Origin: an uncultured Mageeibacillus sp.
GTDB lineage: Bacteria > Bacillota > Clostridia > Saccharofermentanales > DTU023
Length of the DNA: 64,000 bases
Assembly (NCBI GenBank): GCA_964606165.1
Contig: CAZSFQ010000003.1
Coordinates: 64,322-128,321 of the forward strand
Reading direction: 5' to 3'
The notes beneath the pieces were generated by a model. The model was not told where the DNA came from. It worked only from the letters and a program-made list of their open reading frames with translations, and did no database searches. A program made the position numbers and the translations under genes. Below, one piece after another: positions 44,502 through 54,200 of the stretch. Position 1 is the stretch's first letter, and every line of letters begins with the position of its first letter.

Positions 44502-45593
44502 ATGTCCGAAAGCACAAGCAAGGCACGGCGCCAGGATCATGACCTTGGTTTTTTACTGCGCTACGAGAATATCGCCTGGTATGAAAAGGGTTTGGTCCGG
44601 ATCCTGGACCGGCGTGTCTACCCGACTGAAATTATTTTCCTCGAATGCCGGACTGTCGACCAGGTGGCTGAAGCCATCACCGGCATGGTGACCCAGAGCG
44701 CCGGCCCCTACACGGCGGCCGGCATGGGAATGACACTTGCAGCCAGCCAGGTCAGGGGCCGGAGCAAAGACGATCAGCTTCACGCATTGCGGCTGGCTGC
44801 CGACAGGCTGTCGACCGCCCGGCCGACAACTGAATCGAGAATGAGGCTGGTGACATCTGCTGCCCTTGCTGCAGCCGAAAAAGCGCTGAAGCAAGGGGAA
44901 AGTGATGTAACGCAGGTCCTCTTCAACCTGGCCTATGACTCCCTGGAACGCCGCTACGAGCGGATGTCCAGGGTCGGCATCAATCTTATTTCACTTCTTC
45001 CTGACCGGGCAAGCGTTATGACCAACTGCTTTGGCGAGACCATCGTAGGCACCATGATCCGGGCGGCCCAGGAGAGAGGCATGGAACTGAAACTGTTCAC
45101 TCCCGAGACCCGGCCCTACTTCCAGGGTGCCCGCCTGACGGCCAGCGTCGCGGCTGAAATGGGCGCGGATGTCACTGTGATTACCGACAATATGCCAGCC
45201 GAGGTGTTCTCCCGCCATCAGGTCGATCTGTTTACAACGGCGGCCGACGCCATTACCAGGGACGGCTATGTGGTCAACAAAATCGGAACTCTCCAGATCG
45301 CCATCGTCGCCAAATACTACGGCGTGCCCTACTTTGTCACGGGAATTCCGGACATGGTGACCCTTTCTGAAGTCACCATCGAACAGCGCGATCCCCAATT
45401 CGTGCTTGAGGCCCGCGGCGTGCGGAACACCAGGCCTGAAGTCAAAGGTTACTACCCATCCTTTGACATAACGCCTCCTCATCTTGTTTCGGGTGTTGTC
45501 ACCGACACGGGGATTTTGACGCCCTATAACCTGGACCATTACCAGCCGCCCGGCGGACAGGCAGATGACTACTACGGCGGTTTAGATGTATGA
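44502..45593 (+). CDS. eIF-2B alpha/beta/delta-like family isomerase (MtnA-like sugar-phosphate isomerase)
   Basis: 363 aa from the ATG at 44502 (AGGAGG 7 nt upstream). IF-2B-family pattern with FTTAADAITRDGYVVNKIGT. Substrate not assignable. Confidence 0.7.
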   Translation: MSESTSKARRQDHDLGFLLRYENIAWYEKGLVRILDRRVYPTEIIFLECRTVDQVAEAITGMVTQSAGPYTAAGMGMTLAASQVRGRSKDDQLHALRLAADRLSTARPTTESRMRLVTSAALAAAEKALKQGESDVTQVLFNLAYDSLERRYERMSRVGINLISLLPDRASVMTNCFGETIVGTMIRAAQERGMELKLFTPETRPYFQGARLTASVAAEMGADVTVITDNMPAEVFSRHQVDLFTTAADAITRDGYVVNKIGTLQIAIVAKYYGVPYFVTGIPDMVTLSEVTIEQRDPQFVLEARGVRNTRPEVKGYYPSFDITPPHLVSGVVTDTGILTPYNLDHYQPPGGQADDYYGGLDV

Positions 45594-45624
45594 TTGCCTG
45601 TGAGAGAAGAAAGGAGGTAGCCGG

Positions 45625-46668
45625 ATGACAGAAAAAGAAATCCGTCTGACCCAGCTGACCAGCGCCGGCGGCTGAGGGGCCAAGGTAGGACCGGGGGTCC
45701 TTTCCGAGCTGCTGGCTGGTTTGCCGAAAAAAATTGACGACCGCCTCCTTGTCGGTTATGAAACCGACGATGACGCCTGCGTCTACCTCGTTTCCGACGA
45801 CATCGCTGTCATCCAGACAGTCGATTTCTTCCCGCCTGTCGTCGATGATCCTTATGACTACGGCCGTATTGCCGCGGCCAACGCCCTGAGCGATGTCTAC
45901 GCCATGGGAGCTGTACCTAAAACAGCGCTGAACCTGCTTTGCTTTTCGTCTTGTATGGACCTGGCCGTCGTGCGCAGGATTCTTGAAGGCGGGGCCGACA
46001 AGTGCGTGGAGGCCGGGGTCACCATCGCAGGCGGTCACAGTATCGAGGATGAAGAGCCCAAATACGGCCTGTCCGTCATGGGTCTCTGCCACCCGGATCA
46101 GATCCGGAGGAACAACACGCCCCGTGCGGGCCATCAGCTTGTTCTGACAAAGGCTCTTGGTACGGGAGCTCTTTCTACGGGCGCCAAAGCCGACCTTCTC
46201 GACAAGGAGACCGAACAGCTCATGGTTGATACCATGGCCAAACTGAATAAATACGCCTTTGAGGCTTCCCTGGGCCTTCATGTATCTGCCTCAACCGATA
46301 TCACAGGTTTCGGCCTGCTCGGACATATGCGGGAAATGGCGGGTGATGGCGGAGGGATCACCCTGGAACTCGACAGCCGGTCCGTCCCCCTGCTGCCCCA
46401 GGCTCTGGATATGGCCAGGGACGGCATACTCCCCGGCGGAACCTACCGCAACAGGGACTATGTCGGCGACCGGGTTCGGATTGACAAGGAAATTCCCATG
46501 GCCTTGACGGATCTCATGTTTGACCCCCAGACCTCAGGCGGTCTCTTGCTGGCCATGAAAGAGGATGACGTCGAACCTTATCTCAGTACCCTGCGCGGGA
46601 TGGGCGAGGAGGCGTGGCCGGTCGGCCGCGTCCTTCCCTGGCAAGGTGTCGCCATCCGGGTGATCTGA
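45625..46668 (+). CDS. selD: Selenide, water dikinase SelD, with selenocysteine encoded by an in-frame UGA at 45673-45675
   Basis: The ORF track starts at 45721, but the ATG at 45625 (AGGAGG RBS) reads MTEKEIRLTQLTSAGG-U-GAKVGPGVLSELLAGLPKK in frame. This is the SelD N-terminal Gly-rich loop with Sec at the catalytic Cys/Sec position. Confidence 0.85.
45684..45705 (+). promoter_or_regulatory. SECIS-like hairpin for selD UGA recoding
   Basis: Core stem AGGACC-GGG-GGUCCU with flanking G/C pairs, beginning ~9 nt 3' of the UGA. This is typical bacterial SECIS placement. Confidence 0.6.
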
Positions 46669-47748
46669 TCAGCAGAAGATTTCCGACAGCACCTGATCCG
46701 TATAGTCCCCGAACAGGGGGCCGTTGGCGTACTGCATAAAGCCCAGCTCCCCTATGTCATTATATTCGATAAGAACCGGTTCACCGTCTTCAGCGACAGC
46801 AATATCCCAGGCAATCAGGCGCGTATAGGGAAGGCGTTCCGCCATTTTCACAGCCATCTCCCTGACCGCCTGGAAGGAGGGAACAGGATAGCCGCTAAAA
46901 TCAAAGCCCTGCGGGTGCCGGCCGAACTGGTCGCCATTGGCCGAGAAGGCAACTTCCCGCAGGCTGCCGTCTTCCCTGACACCACATACGATGCCGCCAA
47001 AACCCAGGTTATCCACCTGGCTGCCACCGGCGCCCATTTTCAGCACGGTCGAAAGCGCGACGGCCTGGCCGTCAATCAAAAGCGTCATCACGCGCAGGCA
47101 GTTGACTGAACTCTCATGGATGGCGGCAAGGGCGGCATGCTGCCTGACCACCTTCTGAACGATATAACTTGGGACCTGGTCAAAGTGGGTGTCCAGGAAA
47201 TCTGAAACTTCTGCCGCCTCCCTGGCAGAGTGAAACCGGATCCCCTTGCCGCTGTGGGTGCGTGTCGCCGGCTTGACAACCGCCTCACCGCTTTCAAGGA
47301 ATAGCCGGATCGCTTCTTCCCTGCTGATCAATTGATAGTCGGCGTTGTAGAAGGATCCCTTGATTCGCATGAAGACCGTCTCCGGCTGGCGGCAGTTAAA
47401 GAGGAGAGGCTGAAGGCACTTGTTGGTCAGGACGGCATAGTCACGGTCGTTCAGATAGCCAAGCATGCGGGTAAGGTAAAGGTCGTCGGGCAGATAGCGA
47501 ACGTCAAAATCGCCGTGCATACAGGAGTACAAAGCCTGGAAGAGCGGGCGGTTCTTTTTCGTATAGCGGTTCCAGTAATCCCGGATCATCTTTTTCTGTT
47601 CCCGGCTGATGCAACACTGCCGGTGCTTGAATTCCTTGCGGCTGCCTGACCGGATCGACCAGACCATGGCGCGGGCCATGGCGGCATCGGCCTGCTTGTT
47701 CAGGAAGGAAACCCAGGCCCGGATCATTCTCTTAAATTTGTCGCGCAT
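46669..47748 (-). CDS. ATP-grasp family protein (sugar-transfer-associated ATP-grasp type)
   Basis: ~360 aa. VVKPATRTHSGKGI, GGIVCGV and LIAWDIAV..DGEPVLIEYN are reminiscent of the ATPgrasp_ST family. The ATG at 47748 has a GGAAGGAG RBS. Its stop abuts the selD stop. Confidence 0.55.
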   Translation of the reverse strand: MRDKFKRMIRAWVSFLNKQADAAMARAMVWSIRSGSRKEFKHRQCCISREQKKMIRDYWNRYTKKNRPLFQALYSCMHGDFDVRYLPDDLYLTRMLGYLNDRDYAVLTNKCLQPLLFNCRQPETVFMRIKGSFYNADYQLISREEAIRLFLESGEAVVKPATRTHSGKGIRFHSAREAAEVSDFLDTHFDQVPSYIVQKVVRQHAALAAIHESSVNCLRVMTLLIDGQAVALSTVLKMGAGGSQVDNLGFGGIVCGVREDGSLREVAFSANGDQFGRHPQGFDFSGYPVPSFQAVREMAVKMAERLPYTRLIAWDIAVAEDGEPVLIEYNDIGELGFMQYANGPLFGDYTDQVLSEIFC

Positions 47749-47855
47749 GCCAACACTCCTTCCGTCCGTCAAGGCGATCCGCTCTGATTCGGCATTATTC
47801 TACCACTCCCTTTGGTAAGATGAGTTTAAGAACTCAAGACAAAGAGGTGATGGGG

Positions 47856-49310
47856 ATGACCATTGAAAGTCCGCGGGACCTGCCAAAAGTGGATGAGTTG
47901 CTGCGTGATTCGCGTTTCGACAAGGCCAGGGAAACCATGGGCTACATCCCTGTACGAGAAGCGGTGCGCGGTATTCTCGACGCGGCGCGGCAGTTGCTTC
48001 TTGAAAGCGGAGATAAGCCCCACCCGGACACCACATATATCGGCCGGACTGGCCATGGGACGGAGGGAAGCTTATCCCTGACCGCGCAAAGCCTGGTCAC
48101 GGCAGCACTTAATAAGCTCGATACCGAAGCCAGGCCGGGGATCCGGAAAGTCATCAATGCCACCGGCGCCATCCTCCACACCAATCTTGGCCGGGCACCC
48201 CTGGCCAGGCAGGCTCTGGCCGCAATCCAACGAAGCAGTGAAGGCTACGCGTCACTCGAATTTGATCTGGAAGAAAACAGACGGGGCCAGCGTACGTCAT
48301 CGGTGGAAACCCTGCTTTGCCGTCTTTTCCCCATTGAAGCCGCGACAGTGGTCAACAACAACGCGGCTGCTGTCATGCTCGCCTTGTCGGCCTTGTGCCG
48401 GGGGCGTGAGGTCATTGTTTCGCGCGGTGAGCTGGTCGAGATCGGGGGCAGGTTCAGGATCCCCGAGATCATGGAGGAAAGCGGCGCCATTCTGCGCGAA
48501 GTCGGCACCACCAACAAGACACATCCGGCCGATTATGAGAGCGCCATCGGCGACTCAACCGCGGCCCTTCTCAAAGTTCATCGCAGCAATTTCCGGCTGT
48601 CGGGCTTTACCGGAGAGGTTGACGAATTCCAACTGTCCGAATTGGCCCACAAGCACGGCCTCCCTCTGATCTATGACCTGGGAAGCGGCCTCATCTCCGC
48701 GGAGCTTTCCGCCCTGCTGACTGACGAACCGACCGTCCCTGCCGCCCTTGCCTCCGGCGCCGATGTCATCTGTTTTTCCGGTGACAAACTCCTCGGCGGG
48801 CCCCAGGCCGGCATCATCATCGGTAGGGCCGACCTGGTGGGGAAAATGGCCTCCCACCCCCTGATGCGTGCCTTCCGGTGTGACAAGATGACCCTCGCGG
48901 CCCTTGAGGCAACCCTGGCGCTCTATCTGGATCCCGACCGCGCCAAAGAGGAGATCCCTTTGCTGGTGTCGGCGCTTTATGATACCGCCGCCCTGCGTGA
49001 ACGGACCGAAGAGGCGGCGGCCGTCCTCGCCCAACACGGGATTGGCGCGCAGGCTATCTCCTCTCCCATGATCATGGGGGGAGGGGCGGCGCCTGAAGTC
49101 GCTGTGGACTCATGGGCCCTGGCCGTCAATCCCGGCACACTGCCGATCTTTTCGCTGGAATCCAGATTGCGGGCTTTTGACCCTCCCGTCCTCTGCCGCA
49201 CAACACACGAAACACTTTTGTTCGACTTGCGGACTGTTTCTGAAGAAGAGGAGCGCCTGCTTATTTTCGCCCTGGTCGACGCATTTGACAGAGAGGCGGA
49301 TCAGCTATGA
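47856..49310 (+). CDS. selA: L-seryl-tRNA(Sec) selenium transferase
   Basis: LPKVDELLRDS, VINATGAILHTNLGRAPL and PLP-lysine FSGDKLLGGPQAG motifs. The ORF opens at 47820, but the ATG at 47856 has a GAGGTG RBS and matches the family N-terminus. Confidence 0.9.
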   Translation: MTIESPRDLPKVDELLRDSRFDKARETMGYIPVREAVRGILDAARQLLLESGDKPHPDTTYIGRTGHGTEGSLSLTAQSLVTAALNKLDTEARPGIRKVINATGAILHTNLGRAPLARQALAAIQRSSEGYASLEFDLEENRRGQRTSSVETLLCRLFPIEAATVVNNNAAAVMLALSALCRGREVIVSRGELVEIGGRFRIPEIMEESGAILREVGTTNKTHPADYESAIGDSTAALLKVHRSNFRLSGFTGEVDEFQLSELAHKHGLPLIYDLGSGLISAELSALLTDEPTVPAALASGADVICFSGDKLLGGPQAGIIIGRADLVGKMASHPLMRAFRCDKMTLAALEATLALYLDPDRAKEEIPLLVSALYDTAALRERTEEAAAVLAQHGIGAQAISSPMIMGGGAAPEVAVDSWALAVNPGTLPIFSLESRLRAFDPPVLCRTTHETLLFDLRTVSEEEERLLIFALVDAFDREADQL

Positions 49311-51205
49311 AACATGTCATCATCGGCACGGCCGGCCACGTCGATCATGGCAAATCTTCCCTGATCCTGGCCCTGACCGGCCGCGACCCCGACCGGCTCA
49401 CCGAGGAAAAAGAAAGAGGCATCACCATCGAGCTGGGCTTCACCTGGCTCGATCTGCCCGACGGCTCGCGGTCGGGCATTATTGATGTTCCCGGCCATGA
49501 AAAATTCATCAGCAACATGCTGGCGGGAGCCGGCGGGATTGATCTCGCCCTGCTGGTCGTCGCCGCCGACGAGGGTGTCATGCCGCAGACGCGCGAACAC
49601 CTGGGAATTCTGTCGCTGCTTGGTATTCCGCATGGGGTCATCGCGCTCACCAAGTGCGATCTGGCCGATGAGGAGCTGATTGAACTGGTCGAAGAGGATC
49701 TTCGCGACCAGGTCCGCGGCACATTCCTGGAGGACGCGGCCGTCATCCGGACATCAACTGTATCGGGTGAGGGCATTGAAAGCCTGCGGACCACCCTCTT
49801 CGACCTGATCGCCGCGGCGGATTCCACGAGAGACGAGCTCCCCTTCCGGCTGCCTGTCGACCGGATTTTTTCGCTGGGCGGCTTTGGAACCATCGTGACC
49901 GGGACCCTGATTGAGGGGATAGTCCGGACAGGTGACCAGGCCGGGATCTATCCCCAGGACAAGACCGCGCGCGTGCGGGGCATTCAGATTCATGAAACAG
50001 CGGTGGATACCGCCTGGCCGGGGCAGCGCGTCGCCCTTAACCTGACTGGCGTAAAAAAAGACGATTTGGCCCGGGGCGATACCCTGGCCGCGCCGGGAAG
50101 CCTGCGGGGAAGCCAGCTCATCGATGCCACCCTGACCGCGCTCCCCGGAGCCCGCTTCCCCATCACCAACAAGATGCGGGTTCACCTCTTCCACGGCGCC
50201 CGTGAAATCCTGGCCCGCATTGTGCTGCTTGACCGCGATATCCTGGAACCGGGTGACACGGGCCCTGCCCAGATAAGGCCCGAGGAGGAACTGTTCGCCA
50301 AGTACGGTGACCGCTTTATCATCCGTTTTTATTCGCCGCTTGAGACAATCGGGGGCGGTGTCATTGTTGACCCCCTGCCGGCAAGGCGCAGGCGCATGCG
50401 TGAAAACAACTCCGGTGATTTTGACATCATGGCCGGCCATGACCCGTCGGCCCGCCTCAGCCTGGCTGTCGCCCACAGGAGCGACAGGCTTGCCTTACTG
50501 GAAACCGCCTTTTACCGGGCAGGTGTCAGCGCCTTGGACGGCAAGGAATTGCTCAGCGGCCTTGTCGCCAGCCAATCCCTTGTCCTCCTGAATGAGCGCG
50601 TCGCGGTCAGCGAAAGCTTCCTGGAATCACTGGGCCGAAAAGCGTCAGCCCTGCTCGCCAGCTTCCATGCCAAACGGCCGCTCGAGCAGGGGATGAGGCG
50701 TGAGGAACTGCGGACCAGGCTGATGCCGCGCGCGGGGATCCAGTTGTCCGATCTTGTCATCGACCGGCTGCGCGACAGGGAAATCCTTGACACTTACGAT
50801 GGCTTGGTCTCCCTTCATGGCTACCGGGTCTCTCTTTCGCCGGAAGAGGAGAAGGCAGTCCATGAGATGGAGATGATCTTCCTGAAGGCGGGTTACGCGC
50901 CCCCCCTGCCCGACGAGATCCCGCTGCAGCCGGGCAAGCGGGTCGACCGTACGCAAATTTTGTCTTTGCTGATCGACCGTGAAATCCTGATCCGGCTGAC
51001 CCCCCAGATCCTGATGCACCGGGACAAGGTGGATCAGGCGTGGGCCGTCGCCCGCGACACGATTGAGCGGGAAGACGGGATCACTCTGGCTGACTTTCGC
51101 GACCGGCTGGAAACAAGCCGCAAATTTGCCATCGCCCTTCTTGAGTACTTTGACAAAATGAAACGGACCCGCCTGACCGGCGAGACACGCGTATTCTTCG
51201 CCTAG
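49307..51205 (+). CDS. selB: Selenocysteine-specific translation elongation factor SelB
   Basis: GTPase motifs GTAGHVDHGKSSL, DVPGHE and TKCD, with C-terminal winged-helix repeats. ATGA overlap with selA. Confidence 0.9.
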   Translation: MKHVIIGTAGHVDHGKSSLILALTGRDPDRLTEEKERGITIELGFTWLDLPDGSRSGIIDVPGHEKFISNMLAGAGGIDLALLVVAADEGVMPQTREHLGILSLLGIPHGVIALTKCDLADEELIELVEEDLRDQVRGTFLEDAAVIRTSTVSGEGIESLRTTLFDLIAAADSTRDELPFRLPVDRIFSLGGFGTIVTGTLIEGIVRTGDQAGIYPQDKTARVRGIQIHETAVDTAWPGQRVALNLTGVKKDDLARGDTLAAPGSLRGSQLIDATLTALPGARFPITNKMRVHLFHGAREILARIVLLDRDILEPGDTGPAQIRPEEELFAKYGDRFIIRFYSPLETIGGGVIVDPLPARRRRMRENNSGDFDIMAGHDPSARLSLAVAHRSDRLALLETAFYRAGVSALDGKELLSGLVASQSLVLLNERVAVSESFLESLGRKASALLASFHAKRPLEQGMRREELRTRLMPRAGIQLSDLVIDRLRDREILDTYDGLVSLHGYRVSLSPEEEKAVHEMEMIFLKAGYAPPLPDEIPLQPGKRVDRTQILSLLIDREILIRLTPQILMHRDKVDQAWAVARDTIEREDGITLADFRDRLETSRKFAIALLEYFDKMKRTRLTGETRVFFA

Positions 51206-51219
51206 CGAGGTCAAACGAG

Positions 51220-54200
51220 ATGCCACCAGCATGCTGCCCCCGCCTCATCTATCACACAGATCCCGACCAGCTGGTCCGCCGGGTCTTTGACGAACTTGGC
51301 CAACACCAGTCGGCCTGGCCGGATCACCGGGCCTTCATCCTGGTGCCGGAGTATCTGAAAGCCGATATGGAGCGCCGCTACCTGACCGGACAGCATGCCG
51401 GCGGTCTGATGATGTCTGAAGTCCTTTCCTTTCGCCGCCTGGCAACGCGGCTTTTCATGGAGGCGGGCCGCCAGGCCGCGGCCAGTCTCTCAAAAGCGGG
51501 CAAGGCTGTTTTGGCACAGGGCTTGCTGCTGGACAGCAAGCTTCCTTTCCGAAGATTCAACCGGCTGGCCGGAAGACCGCGCTACGCCGCGGAACTGGTC
51601 AGTGTTCTGGGAGATTTTCAACGTTATGGTATATCCACCAAAGACCTGATGAATACTGAAGAGGAGATCGGCACTGCCGTCGCGAGCCAGGCAACCATGG
51701 ATAAGCTGCACGATTTCGCTCTTCTCAAGGATGCGCTGGAAAAAGAACTTCAACTGCGGCACTTGGATGACCCTGACGAAGAACTGAGCCGTTTGGCGCA
51801 ATTACTGGACACCGAACCCTTGCCCGGCCGCCTGGCTTTCCTGGGGAACTCCCATGTCTGGATCCTGGGTTTCGGCAACAGCCGTGATTTTACCTCCCAG
51901 GAGCGGCAGGTCCTGAAAGCCCTCTCATCCAAAGTCGCTTCCCTGACCATCGCGATTGCCGATGACGGCTCGGAAGGGGAAGAAATCGCTTTCCGGCATG
52001 GCAGCGAAAGCCTGCGGTCGCTCGAGCGGCTCTTCCCCGGATCCAGGAGGGAACGGCTGCCATCTCCAGTCACCCGCCCGCAACCGGAGATGTGCTTTAT
52101 ACGGGCCATCGACAGGCGTGAGGAAGTGCGCTATGCCGCCGGGGAAATCCGCAGACTTCTGCTGACGGGCAAGACGCGGCGAAAGGACATCGGCATTGCC
52201 CTTTGTGAGACGGACATGGCTTCCGCCTACCTTGAACCTGCCCTGGCCGAGTACGGGATTGACGCCTACATTGACACGGGCAGGCCGCTCCATCAAAGCT
52301 CCTTTCTACGCTTCCTGCGATCTTTTCTCAAACTGTGCAAACACGAATTCAGCCTGGATGACCTGCTCGACTATTACAGAAGCGGCCTTTCCGGCCTGGA
52401 TGGCCAGGAGATCGATCTTTTTGAAAATGAGGCCCTGGCCATCGGTTGGCGGGGAGTCCGCGATTCTTCCAGGATCCTGACCGGGTTTGACCCGCTGACG
52501 CCGGAGGGTCTGGCCGTCACCTCTGTTCTTGCTGACTTGGAAAAGTTGCTGATGCGGATAACCGCCATGCGGGAAGCAGGGACTGGCAGGTCCAAGTGCT
52601 CCCTGCTGATTGACTTGCTGTTTGAAGGTGAAAGCCCTCCCGCCCGGCTGATCGGGGAACAAAGGGACAAGCTGCTGGCGGACGGCCACAAGGAGAGCGC
52701 CCGTACTCTGGTCGCCTCTTGGAACGCGGTCATCGATTACCTGGAGGAATCCGCCGGGCTCCTCGGTGAGACCCGCATTTCCCAGGAGCATTTTGCATCC
52801 CTCCTGCTCGCGGGCATGGAGGGTTTGTCGCTGGCTTCAATTCCCGCCGGTATCGATCTGGTCCGGGTGGGCTCACTTGCCCAGATGGCCTCCTGGCCAT
52901 GCCGGATTTTATTTATTTTGGGCGCGACCGACGCGGCTTTTCCTCCTCCGCCCGGGCAGGAAGGCTACTTGCTGGATGAGGAAAGGGCTTTCCTGGCTGA
53001 CCGGTCAGGCAAGCCCTTCCCCAACAGGACCAGGGACCAGGCCGCGACACAGGCCTGGCTGATTCACTCACTCCTTACCAGACCCGGCCAGGCACTTTAC
53101 TTGTCAACACCGACCCTGGGAGACGACAGTTCGCGTCTCTTTGACGAATGGCTTGCGGAAAAAGGAGGCGATGAAATCGTCCTGACCAGGCAGACTGCTC
53201 AACCCGACCCGCGCTGGTACGCGCCCGGGACGGCGGTCAGGATGCTCCGATGGACCCGCGACGCGCCCCTGGCCTGGCAGGAGGCCGTCGCGCATTTCAA
53301 AAAAGATATTCCCCGCCTGCTTCAGCCGGCCGATGAAATGGCCGCTTCTCTCGCCCTGCCCCAATCACTGGCCGAAGCCGTCATGACAGAGCGTAAGGGC
53401 GTCAGCGTTTCCTTGATCCAGCTTTATAATTCCTGTCCCTTCCGGTTCTTTATCCAATACCTGACGGGCGCAACCGAACGGATCATACCCGAGGACATGG
53501 CAAGCCACCAGGGAACCCTCCTTCACCGCCTGATGGAATTGGCTGTGGAGGAATTGATCGACCTGCTCGGGGTCTCTTCGCAGGATGAAAATTTGGCAGT
53601 CACTCTTGGCTGGCAAGAACGTCTGACCCCCCTGCATATGCGCGATCTGTACCGGCAGGCGACCGGGGACCGGCAGCTGGCATGGTATGGGGAGCCGTCT
53701 CTTTCAGGCGGAATCGGCGAGCGAATGATCATGCGCGCCGCGGACACCCTTGGCATCCTCGCCGAATTCAACCGCAAGGATGAATTCAGGCCGCGGCTTC
53801 TGGAGTGGTACTTCCCCCAGGAAGGTCGGCCGCCCTATCTGTTGAGGGCCGGCAAACACGACTTCACCTGCCGCGGCCTGATCGACCGGATCGATGAAAA
53901 CCCGCAGGGCCTGATCCGGCTGATCGATTATAAGCGTTCATCCCGGGAGTTCTCCTGGCTGGGCCTTTACGATGGTACCGACCTCCAGCTCCCTCTCTAC
54001 AAAAGAGCTTATGAGACCGCTTTTCCGGGAAGCCTGATCGAAGGACTTCTTTTCGCCGGCTGGAAGACATCCAATCATTACCAACTATCTTCCTTCCGGC
54101 CGCCCCCCTCTCCCGATGAAAATACAGGCCTCAAATCACTCGAAAAGCAGATGGCCGTATGGAAGGAAGATCACCTGCAAAAGGTGGCCCGTTTCGCTGA

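Follow-up and report, generated by a model that had tools for sequence, protein, structure and literature searches.

A selD gene of very probable selenocysteine type, with a conserved hairpin behind its in-frame UGA, in an uncultured Mageeibacillus genome

The window analysed here is a stretch of 64,000 nucleotides from one contig of an uncultured Mageeibacillus sp., and its forward strand carries a gene for selenide, water dikinase (selD) together with two further components of the selenocysteine (Sec) decoding apparatus. The full-length selD coding sequence spans 45625..46668 and is read from an ATG at 45625-45627: 16 sense codons are followed by a TGA at 45673..45675, after which the same frame is open until the TGA stop codon at 46666-46668. 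With the internal TGA read as Sec (U), translation gives 347 residues, including the Sec at position 17, and the N-terminal peptide is MTEKEIRLTQLTSAGG-U-GAKVGPGVLSELL, exactly as it had been written in an earlier note on this DNA, which was made from the letters and a list of open reading frames. That note had also pointed to the UGA after 16 sense codons and to the frame running on into the listed ORF, both of which can be seen directly in the sequence. The AGGAGG Shine-Dalgarno motif that it placed 8 nt upstream of the ATG is present on the forward strand at 45612..45617, with the spacer corrected to 7 nt. Likewise, the mechanical ORF list does begin selD at an internal TTG (45721..45723, + strand), which codes for Leu33 of the longer frame and yields a product of 315 aa; no Shine-Dalgarno motif was seen in the sequence upstream of this TTG.

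Downstream of selD on the same strand lie selA (47820..49310), which codes for the L-seryl-tRNA(Sec) selenium transferase (TIGR00474, 528.4 bits) and is syntenic with selD in relatives, and selB (49307..51205), which codes for the Sec-specific elongation factor and matches its model over the full length (TIGR00475, 365.8 bits). The C-terminal part of this SelB contains winged-helix domains detected as Pfam SelB-wing_2 (residues 449-503) and SelB-wing_3 (residues 586-629); the C-terminal winged-helix domains are the SECIS-binding part in those SelB proteins that have been studied. The gene for tRNA-Sec, selC, lies on the same contig (C3:128343-128435), 22 nt past the end of the window and about 13 kb from selB. 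It has the anticodon TCA and scores 70.8 bits, and the tRNA-Sec that the earlier note proposed to seek elsewhere in the genome is accordingly located. The Sec-decoding set of selA, selB, selC and selD is complete in this genome, and only one copy of selD was found in it.

The neighbourhood shows several further features. A gene for an ATP-grasp protein (Pfam ATPgrasp_ST, 135 bits) is encoded on the opposite strand between selD and selA (46669-47772, -) and abuts the selD stop codon. This insert is present only in the three closest relatives, its place being taken in the other members of the genus by another insert, of 1.8-3 kb, and the gene order mtnA-selD...selA-selB is conserved in the genus. 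The selA and selB genes overlap by 4 nt (ATGA, 49307-49310), and an AddB-like gene (Pfam ADDB_N) starts directly after selB (51205-51220).

Judged by profile and structure-database matches, the extended product is a full-length member of the SelD family, for which selenophosphate synthesis is the predicted activity. It scores 381.7 bits against the NCBIfam model TIGR00476 (selD), for which the curated cut-off is 125 bits, with residues 7-315 covering model positions 1-310 of 311; it further matches NF002098 from end to end (353 bits) and contains the Pfam AIRS and AIRS_C domains. It also aligns with Escherichia coli SelD (PDB 3u0o) over residues 1-342 with an E-value of 6.7e-78. In this alignment U17 falls on the catalytic Cys17 and K20 on Lys20 of the E. 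coli enzyme, and in Aquifex aeolicus SelD (chain 2yye/2zod) the position of U17 is likewise taken by the corresponding Cys (GC-AAK). The two alignments agree in placing the UGA at the catalytic Cys/Sec site of the conserved N-terminal loop, where the earlier note had put it. Sec/Cys17 and Lys20 of this glycine-rich loop are essential residues of SelD, and a product starting from Leu33 would lack the loop that holds them.

This shorter product is the one represented in public data. A public cluster with 13 members has exactly the 315-aa sequence that starts at TTG 45721 as its representative; 12 of the members are 315 aa long and one, the NCBI record NLA95661.1, named SelD, is 318 aa long, and all the copies in the cluster are without the catalytic loop. 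The expectation that automated annotation would truncate this protein is borne out by that cluster.

In a search of 60 relatives we recovered selD genes with a single in-frame TGA from 28 genomes of the same genus and family. In all 28 the TGA stands in the column AGG-*-GAK, and with the gene of the window the count is 29/29 Sec-type genes of the clade. In a broader scan, of contigs with one genome per species, 78 readable selD genes were obtained from Clostridia, Chloroflexota, Calditrichota, Desulfobacterota and other groups, of which 77 have TGA and 1 has TGC. Eleven Cys-type selD genes, mostly from a sister family in the same order, carry TGC or TGT at the UGA column. One relative from the same genus has two Sec-type selD genes (C43:26972-28012 and C9:39335-40372 of its assembly), with one in-frame TGA each.

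The region upstream of the UGA is preserved too. Close homologues, in which the earlier note had allowed that the N-terminal loop might be absent, retain both the loop and the UGA and have an ATG placed exactly 16 codons ahead of the UGA, and in nearly all relatives from the same genus this ATG is preceded at equal distance by AAGGAGG. Altogether, the UGA column and the 16 upstream codons are kept in more than 100 independent assemblies. On the 5' side of the UGA the amino acids I-R-L-T-x-x-T-x-A-G-G are maintained with codons that differ freely between genes (entropy 1-2 bits), which argues that this part of selD is translated. In these alignments the in-frame UGA corresponds to the Cys codons of homologues, and the coding sequence is conserved on both sides of it.

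A short hairpin, AGGACC-GGG-GGUCCU, follows the UGA. The core of this candidate SECIS element occupies 45687..45701 (+ strand), consists of 6 bp and a GGG triloop, and begins 11 nt after the UGA; an extended form, in which two flanking G-C pairs are added across an internal mismatch, covers 45684-45705 and begins 8 nt after the UGA. The earlier note had described the right hairpin, whereas the coordinates it gave are those of the extended form, the perfect stem being confined to 45687-45701. The loop (45693-45695) lies 17 nt after the UGA, and a UGA-to-loop distance of 16-17 nt is seen in every member of the clade. The published distance from the UGA to the apical loop in bacterial SECIS elements is 16-37 nt, and the 17 nt of selD falls inside this range (PMC10778597). 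Rfam searches of the window at the gathering threshold, and of 45500-45900 at E <= 10, returned no SECIS or other relevant family; as no bacterial SECIS family was seen among the Rfam matches, this lack of a match says little.

In a single-sequence comparison with dinucleotide shuffles the fold was unexceptional (z = -0.09), which the high GC content of the region explains. Shuffling gives no informative null for coding sequence so rich in GC, and hence we used synonymous recodings instead, in which the same peptide was encoded with the codon usage of the genome. The core hairpin has a folding energy of -7.9 kcal/mol, compared with -3.0 +/- 1.7 in the recodings, and was matched by 0.46% of 5000 of them. 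For the natural sequences of 86 distinct Sec-type genes the mean energy is -7.2, as against -3.3 for recodings, and the fraction of recodings that fold as well is <=0.05 in 50 of the 86 and <=0.01 in 29. In contrast, the same region of the 11 Cys-type genes, two of which retain the G-P-G motif, folds no better than its recodings (fractions of 0.04 to 1.0, with a median of about 0.65).

The codons that make up the stem are under unusual constraint. Among 59 columns that code for conserved four-fold-degenerate amino acids throughout the selD gene, for which the median codon entropy is 1.68 bits, the stem codons rank first, second and fourth for lowest entropy. In the 29 clade genes Pro23 is invariably CCG (29/29), Val25 is GTC in 24 and GTT in 5, and Gly22 is GGA in 26 and GGG in 3, GGA being the rarest Gly codon of this genome. 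All changes of the core stem within the clade are compatible with wobble pairing, A being replaced by G where it faces U, or C by U where it faces G. Of the core pairs 21-35 to 25-31 (A1 numbering), four are formed in all rows and 21-35 in 27/28 (97-100% overall), and the loop-closing pair 26-30 is kept in 24/28. RNAalifold supports only the 5-bp core stem. No double compensatory change was found in the core stem within the clade, and the evidence for the hairpin at this level is therefore one of constraint and not of covariation; shuffle controls for covariation within the clade were marginal (34/500 and 26/500).

At greater distances the stem persists with other letters, the versions from different phyla including GGACC/GGUCC, GGUCC/GGACC, GGUC/GACC, GGCC/GGCC and AGAGC/GCUCU, a covariation in which the register is partly shifted by one base. 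At Gly22 the third base, which is silent, tracks the identity of codon 25 across the stem: where codon 25 is Val (GUN), this base is A or G in 35/36 cases, whereas Thr (ACC) and Asp (GAC) go with U, Ala (GCC) with C and Ala (GCU) with G. By this comparative evidence the selD hairpin is an RNA structure selected beyond the needs of the protein and tied to Sec rather than to Cys. The proposal that it acts as a recoding signal downstream of the UGA is strengthened by its conservation, its synonymous constraint and its restriction to Sec-type genes.

A second hairpin is found in other lineages. It lies 30-45 nt after the UGA, with its loop 33 nt after it, is encoded by the motif A-Q-V-L-C/R (GCRCAR-GUN-YUGYGC), and is present in 42/63 distinct sequences from those lineages. 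The loop starts with GU in 34 of these 42, and the stem shows compensatory changes (GCGCAG/CUGCGC, GCACAG/CUGUGC and GCUCAA/UUGAGC). This GU-loop hairpin could be the SECIS element of the lineages that have it, and the proximal hairpin may therefore not act as the SECIS in every lineage. In the clade of the window no second conserved hairpin was detected, 23/30 sequences being without any and a GU loop occurring in none, and the proximal hairpin is, on the alignments, the only conserved SECIS candidate there. A co-fold of SelB with the hairpin RNA gave 0.06 as against 0.38 for the shuffled control; with shuffled RNAs scoring higher, we took this result as uninformative and do not count it against binding.

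The remainder of the genome offers further signs of selenium use. Both grdA and grdB contain in-frame TGAs, in grdA within ECFV-U-TAAG and in grdB within LTST-U-GTCTRCG, the latter being followed by 85 further in-frame codons. A hairpin, GUUGC-GGC-GCAAC, whose loop lies 18 nt after the UGA of grdB, resembles that of selD. The glycine reductase operon with these genes lies outside the window, on another contig (C21:6308-6748 (-) and around C21 position 8436 (-)). A third contig carries a gene for an ArsM-like SAM methyltransferase (C20:19608-20561 (-)), which matches NF008823 with 244 bits and Methyltransf_31 at residues 73-209. It has an in-frame TGA within the methyltransferase domain, at codon 200 of the stop-to-stop frame, and an 8-bp stem with a GGA triloop 20 nt downstream of that TGA. 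NCBIfam contains dedicated ArsM selenoprotein models, and the product is likely to be a fourth selenoprotein. The same sequence is found again at the start of contig C19, which points to a repeat or to a break in the assembly.

About 1.4 kb past selC lie yqeB and yqeC (C3:129864-131411), whose products function in the maturation of selenium-dependent molybdenum hydroxylases. The combination of yqeB, yqeC and selD marks the selenium-cofactor trait (PMC9312934), and SelD probably serves two selenium traits in this organism, namely Sec and the YqeB/YqeC cofactor. In the assembly, which is 93.7% complete, FdhA (TIGR01591) was not found and SelU (TIGR03167) gave nothing above its cut-off. An ad-hoc genome-wide scan in the style of SECIS searches returned 355 hairpin-bearing TGAs, with 26 in long read-through frames; most were off-frame junk. 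Two candidates that were tested, on contigs C11 and C24, had no Pfam domain, and the scan, which missed grdA, is neither sensitive nor specific.

These observations can be set against readings in which no Sec is inserted at the UGA of selD. Were the TGA a true stop, selD would be either a pseudogene or the source of a 315-aa protein made from TTG 45721 behind a 16-codon mini-ORF; such a reading has on its side that the 315/318-aa product is what ORF callers and public databases give, and that TGA is the usual stop codon of this genome. The short form would be deprived of the loop with the catalytic Sec/Cys17 and Lys20, however, and the TGA column and its 16 upstream codons are maintained across the assemblies with the pattern of synonymous variation expected of translated sequence. 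Moreover, the codon aligned with TTG 45721 is TTA, CTN or ATY, none of them a start codon, in 15/29 genes, two relatives lack any in-frame start ahead of codon 60, and the TTG lacks the Shine-Dalgarno motif that the ATG has. We consider a true stop extremely improbable, and the TTG a false start of the ORF callers. Both the pseudogene and the internal-start versions were rejected on the start codons of the relatives and the non-start codons at the TTG position. There is as little to be said for the rival that the UGA specifies Trp, Cys or Gly, all of them standard amino acids, in place of Sec, be it by a changed code or by near-cognate suppression. Near-cognate read-through of UGA does occur in bacteria, and under selenium starvation it could yield a trickle of non-Sec SelD; yet the genome encodes a dedicated tRNA-Sec, SelA and SelB, and the in-frame TGAs that came to light, those of grdA and grdB, are confined to classic Sec sites. 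As a true stop codon TGA is used more often than either of the others, ending 455/924 stop-to-stop frames of at least 300 codons, and no internal TGA occurs in selA, selB, yqeB and other conserved genes. On these two counts a reassignment of TGA was rejected, and the chance that the codon specifies a standard amino acid appears negligible.

A different kind of alternative accepts selD as a Sec gene and disputes only that the hairpin at 45687-45701 is the site of SelB: it would have been kept for another reason, for example ribosome pausing or as part of a larger, bipartite stem that contains the UGA, with the SECIS element elsewhere. RNAfold does often extend the structure into a long stem in which UGAGGNGC is paired with the Glu-Leu-Leu codons, the GU-loop hairpin at +33 in other phyla, with its compensatory changes, looks more like a canonical SECIS element, and the SelB co-fold offers no guidance. 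Nevertheless, the clade of the window has no second conserved hairpin that could take over the role, RNAalifold backs the core stem and not the larger structure, the core hairpin is specific to Sec-type genes, and its GGN triloop and spacing agree with those of the grdB hairpin in the same genome. We regard a SECIS element at another position as unlikely.

The reading that we hold to be very probable, from the comparison of sequences, is that the gene at 45625-46668 is a Sec-type selD coding for selenophosphate synthetase, with Sec inserted at the UGA at 45673-45675. Translation would initiate at the ATG at 45625, and at the UGA the ribosome would meet SelB-GTP carrying Sec-tRNA(Sec), the mRNA hairpin at 45687-45701 acting as a bacterial SECIS that presumably holds SelB at the site, so that Sec is inserted and the chain is not terminated. 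Sec17 in the glycine-rich N-terminal loop, with Lys20 three residues further on, would then handle selenide, and SelD is predicted to make selenophosphate in an ATP-dependent reaction. The selenophosphate would pass to SelA for the synthesis of Sec-tRNA and, probably, to the YqeB/YqeC selenium-cofactor pathway encoded beside selC. As only one selD was found in the genome, the output of SelD would depend on its own product, and a positive feedback on selenium supply may result. The idea that selD is autoregulated, which the earlier note put forward as autocatalytic selenophosphate synthesis, goes back to a hypothesis of Guimaraes et al. 1996 (cited in PMC10778597). Sec insertion, the binding of SelB to the hairpin and the feedback are steps that we infer.

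A more far-reaching interpretation, which we offer as possible but doubtful, is that in this clade the SECIS element has been reduced to a minimal proximal hairpin, to which its function has moved, with the specificity of SelB changed to match. The minimal signal would comprise 6 bp and a GGN triloop 17 nt after the UGA, housed in the codons of the G-P-x-V-L motif. The single Sec-type SelD would, under the same interpretation, be an obligate positive-feedback gate for all selenium use of the cell, and the uses behind this gate would be glycine reductase, the ArsM-like protein and the YqeB/YqeC selenium-cofactor pathway.

The main worth of the Sec-type assignment is as a correction of annotation. 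Every public copy found is truncated to 315 or 318 aa, and consequently a model of selenium metabolism or of protein structure in these Clostridia from anaerobic digesters would start from an inactive SelD fragment. The comparative data additionally show with clarity how one set of codons can hold an RNA structure and a protein motif that evolve together, and the finding itself confirms a lineage with small genomes as a committed user of selenium, with Sec-SelD, GrdA, GrdB, a likely ArsM-like selenoprotein and the YqeB/YqeC trait.

The finding is the correct identification of a gene of a well-known kind, the biology of which is already known. Sec-type SelD has been known since the 1990s; it is found also in Haemophilus influenzae, and in Eubacterium acidaminophilum selD1/selD2 belong to a selD-selA-selB-selC cluster. 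The Aquifex aeolicus SelD naturally has Sec, and the protein of 2yye/2zod is reported to have been crystallised with Cys in its place (Sec13-to-Cys). This protein shares with the one described here the motif G-C/U-AAKVGPG around the catalytic residue, and differs in coming from another phylum, with an identity of about 40-45% as judged by inspecting the alignment. E. coli SelD (3u0o) likewise has the glycine-rich loop with residue 17 and Lys20 in register, but its Cys17 is specified by a Cys codon and needs neither recoding nor a SECIS element. In comparison with bacterial SECIS elements of the E. coli fdhF type and the bSECISearch consensus, the selD hairpin is similarly a stem-loop within the ORF with a loop distance in the known range, and its loop is G-rich. 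It differs in its compactness, with a 6-bp stem and a 3-nt GGG loop as against a larger, GU-containing loop, in being built from the codons of the conserved G-P-x-V-L motif, and in having no Rfam match.

Among bacterial selenoproteins SelD and FdhA are the two with the widest distribution, and those Sec-decoders that lack FdhA all have Sec-SelD (PMC1794560), a rule that this genome, with Sec-SelD present and FdhA not found, fits. The selenoproteome of Thermoanaerobacter tengcongensis consists of SelD, GrdA and GrdB (PMC1794560), a set shared with the genome studied here. Sec-type SelD is listed for Clostridium difficile, C. perfringens, T. tengcongensis and Moorella thermoacetica (PMC1794560). 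With the Sec-type SelD of such Clostridia and other bacteria the present gene has in common the UGA at the catalytic N-terminal loop, the putative SECIS element within the coding sequence just downstream, and the linkage to selA and selB. There is essentially no difference from these known genes, save that here the opposite-strand ATP-grasp gene parts selD from selA, that selC lies at a distance instead of being adjacent, and that the lineage is one of uncultured MAGs labelled Saccharofermentanales/Mageeibacillus.
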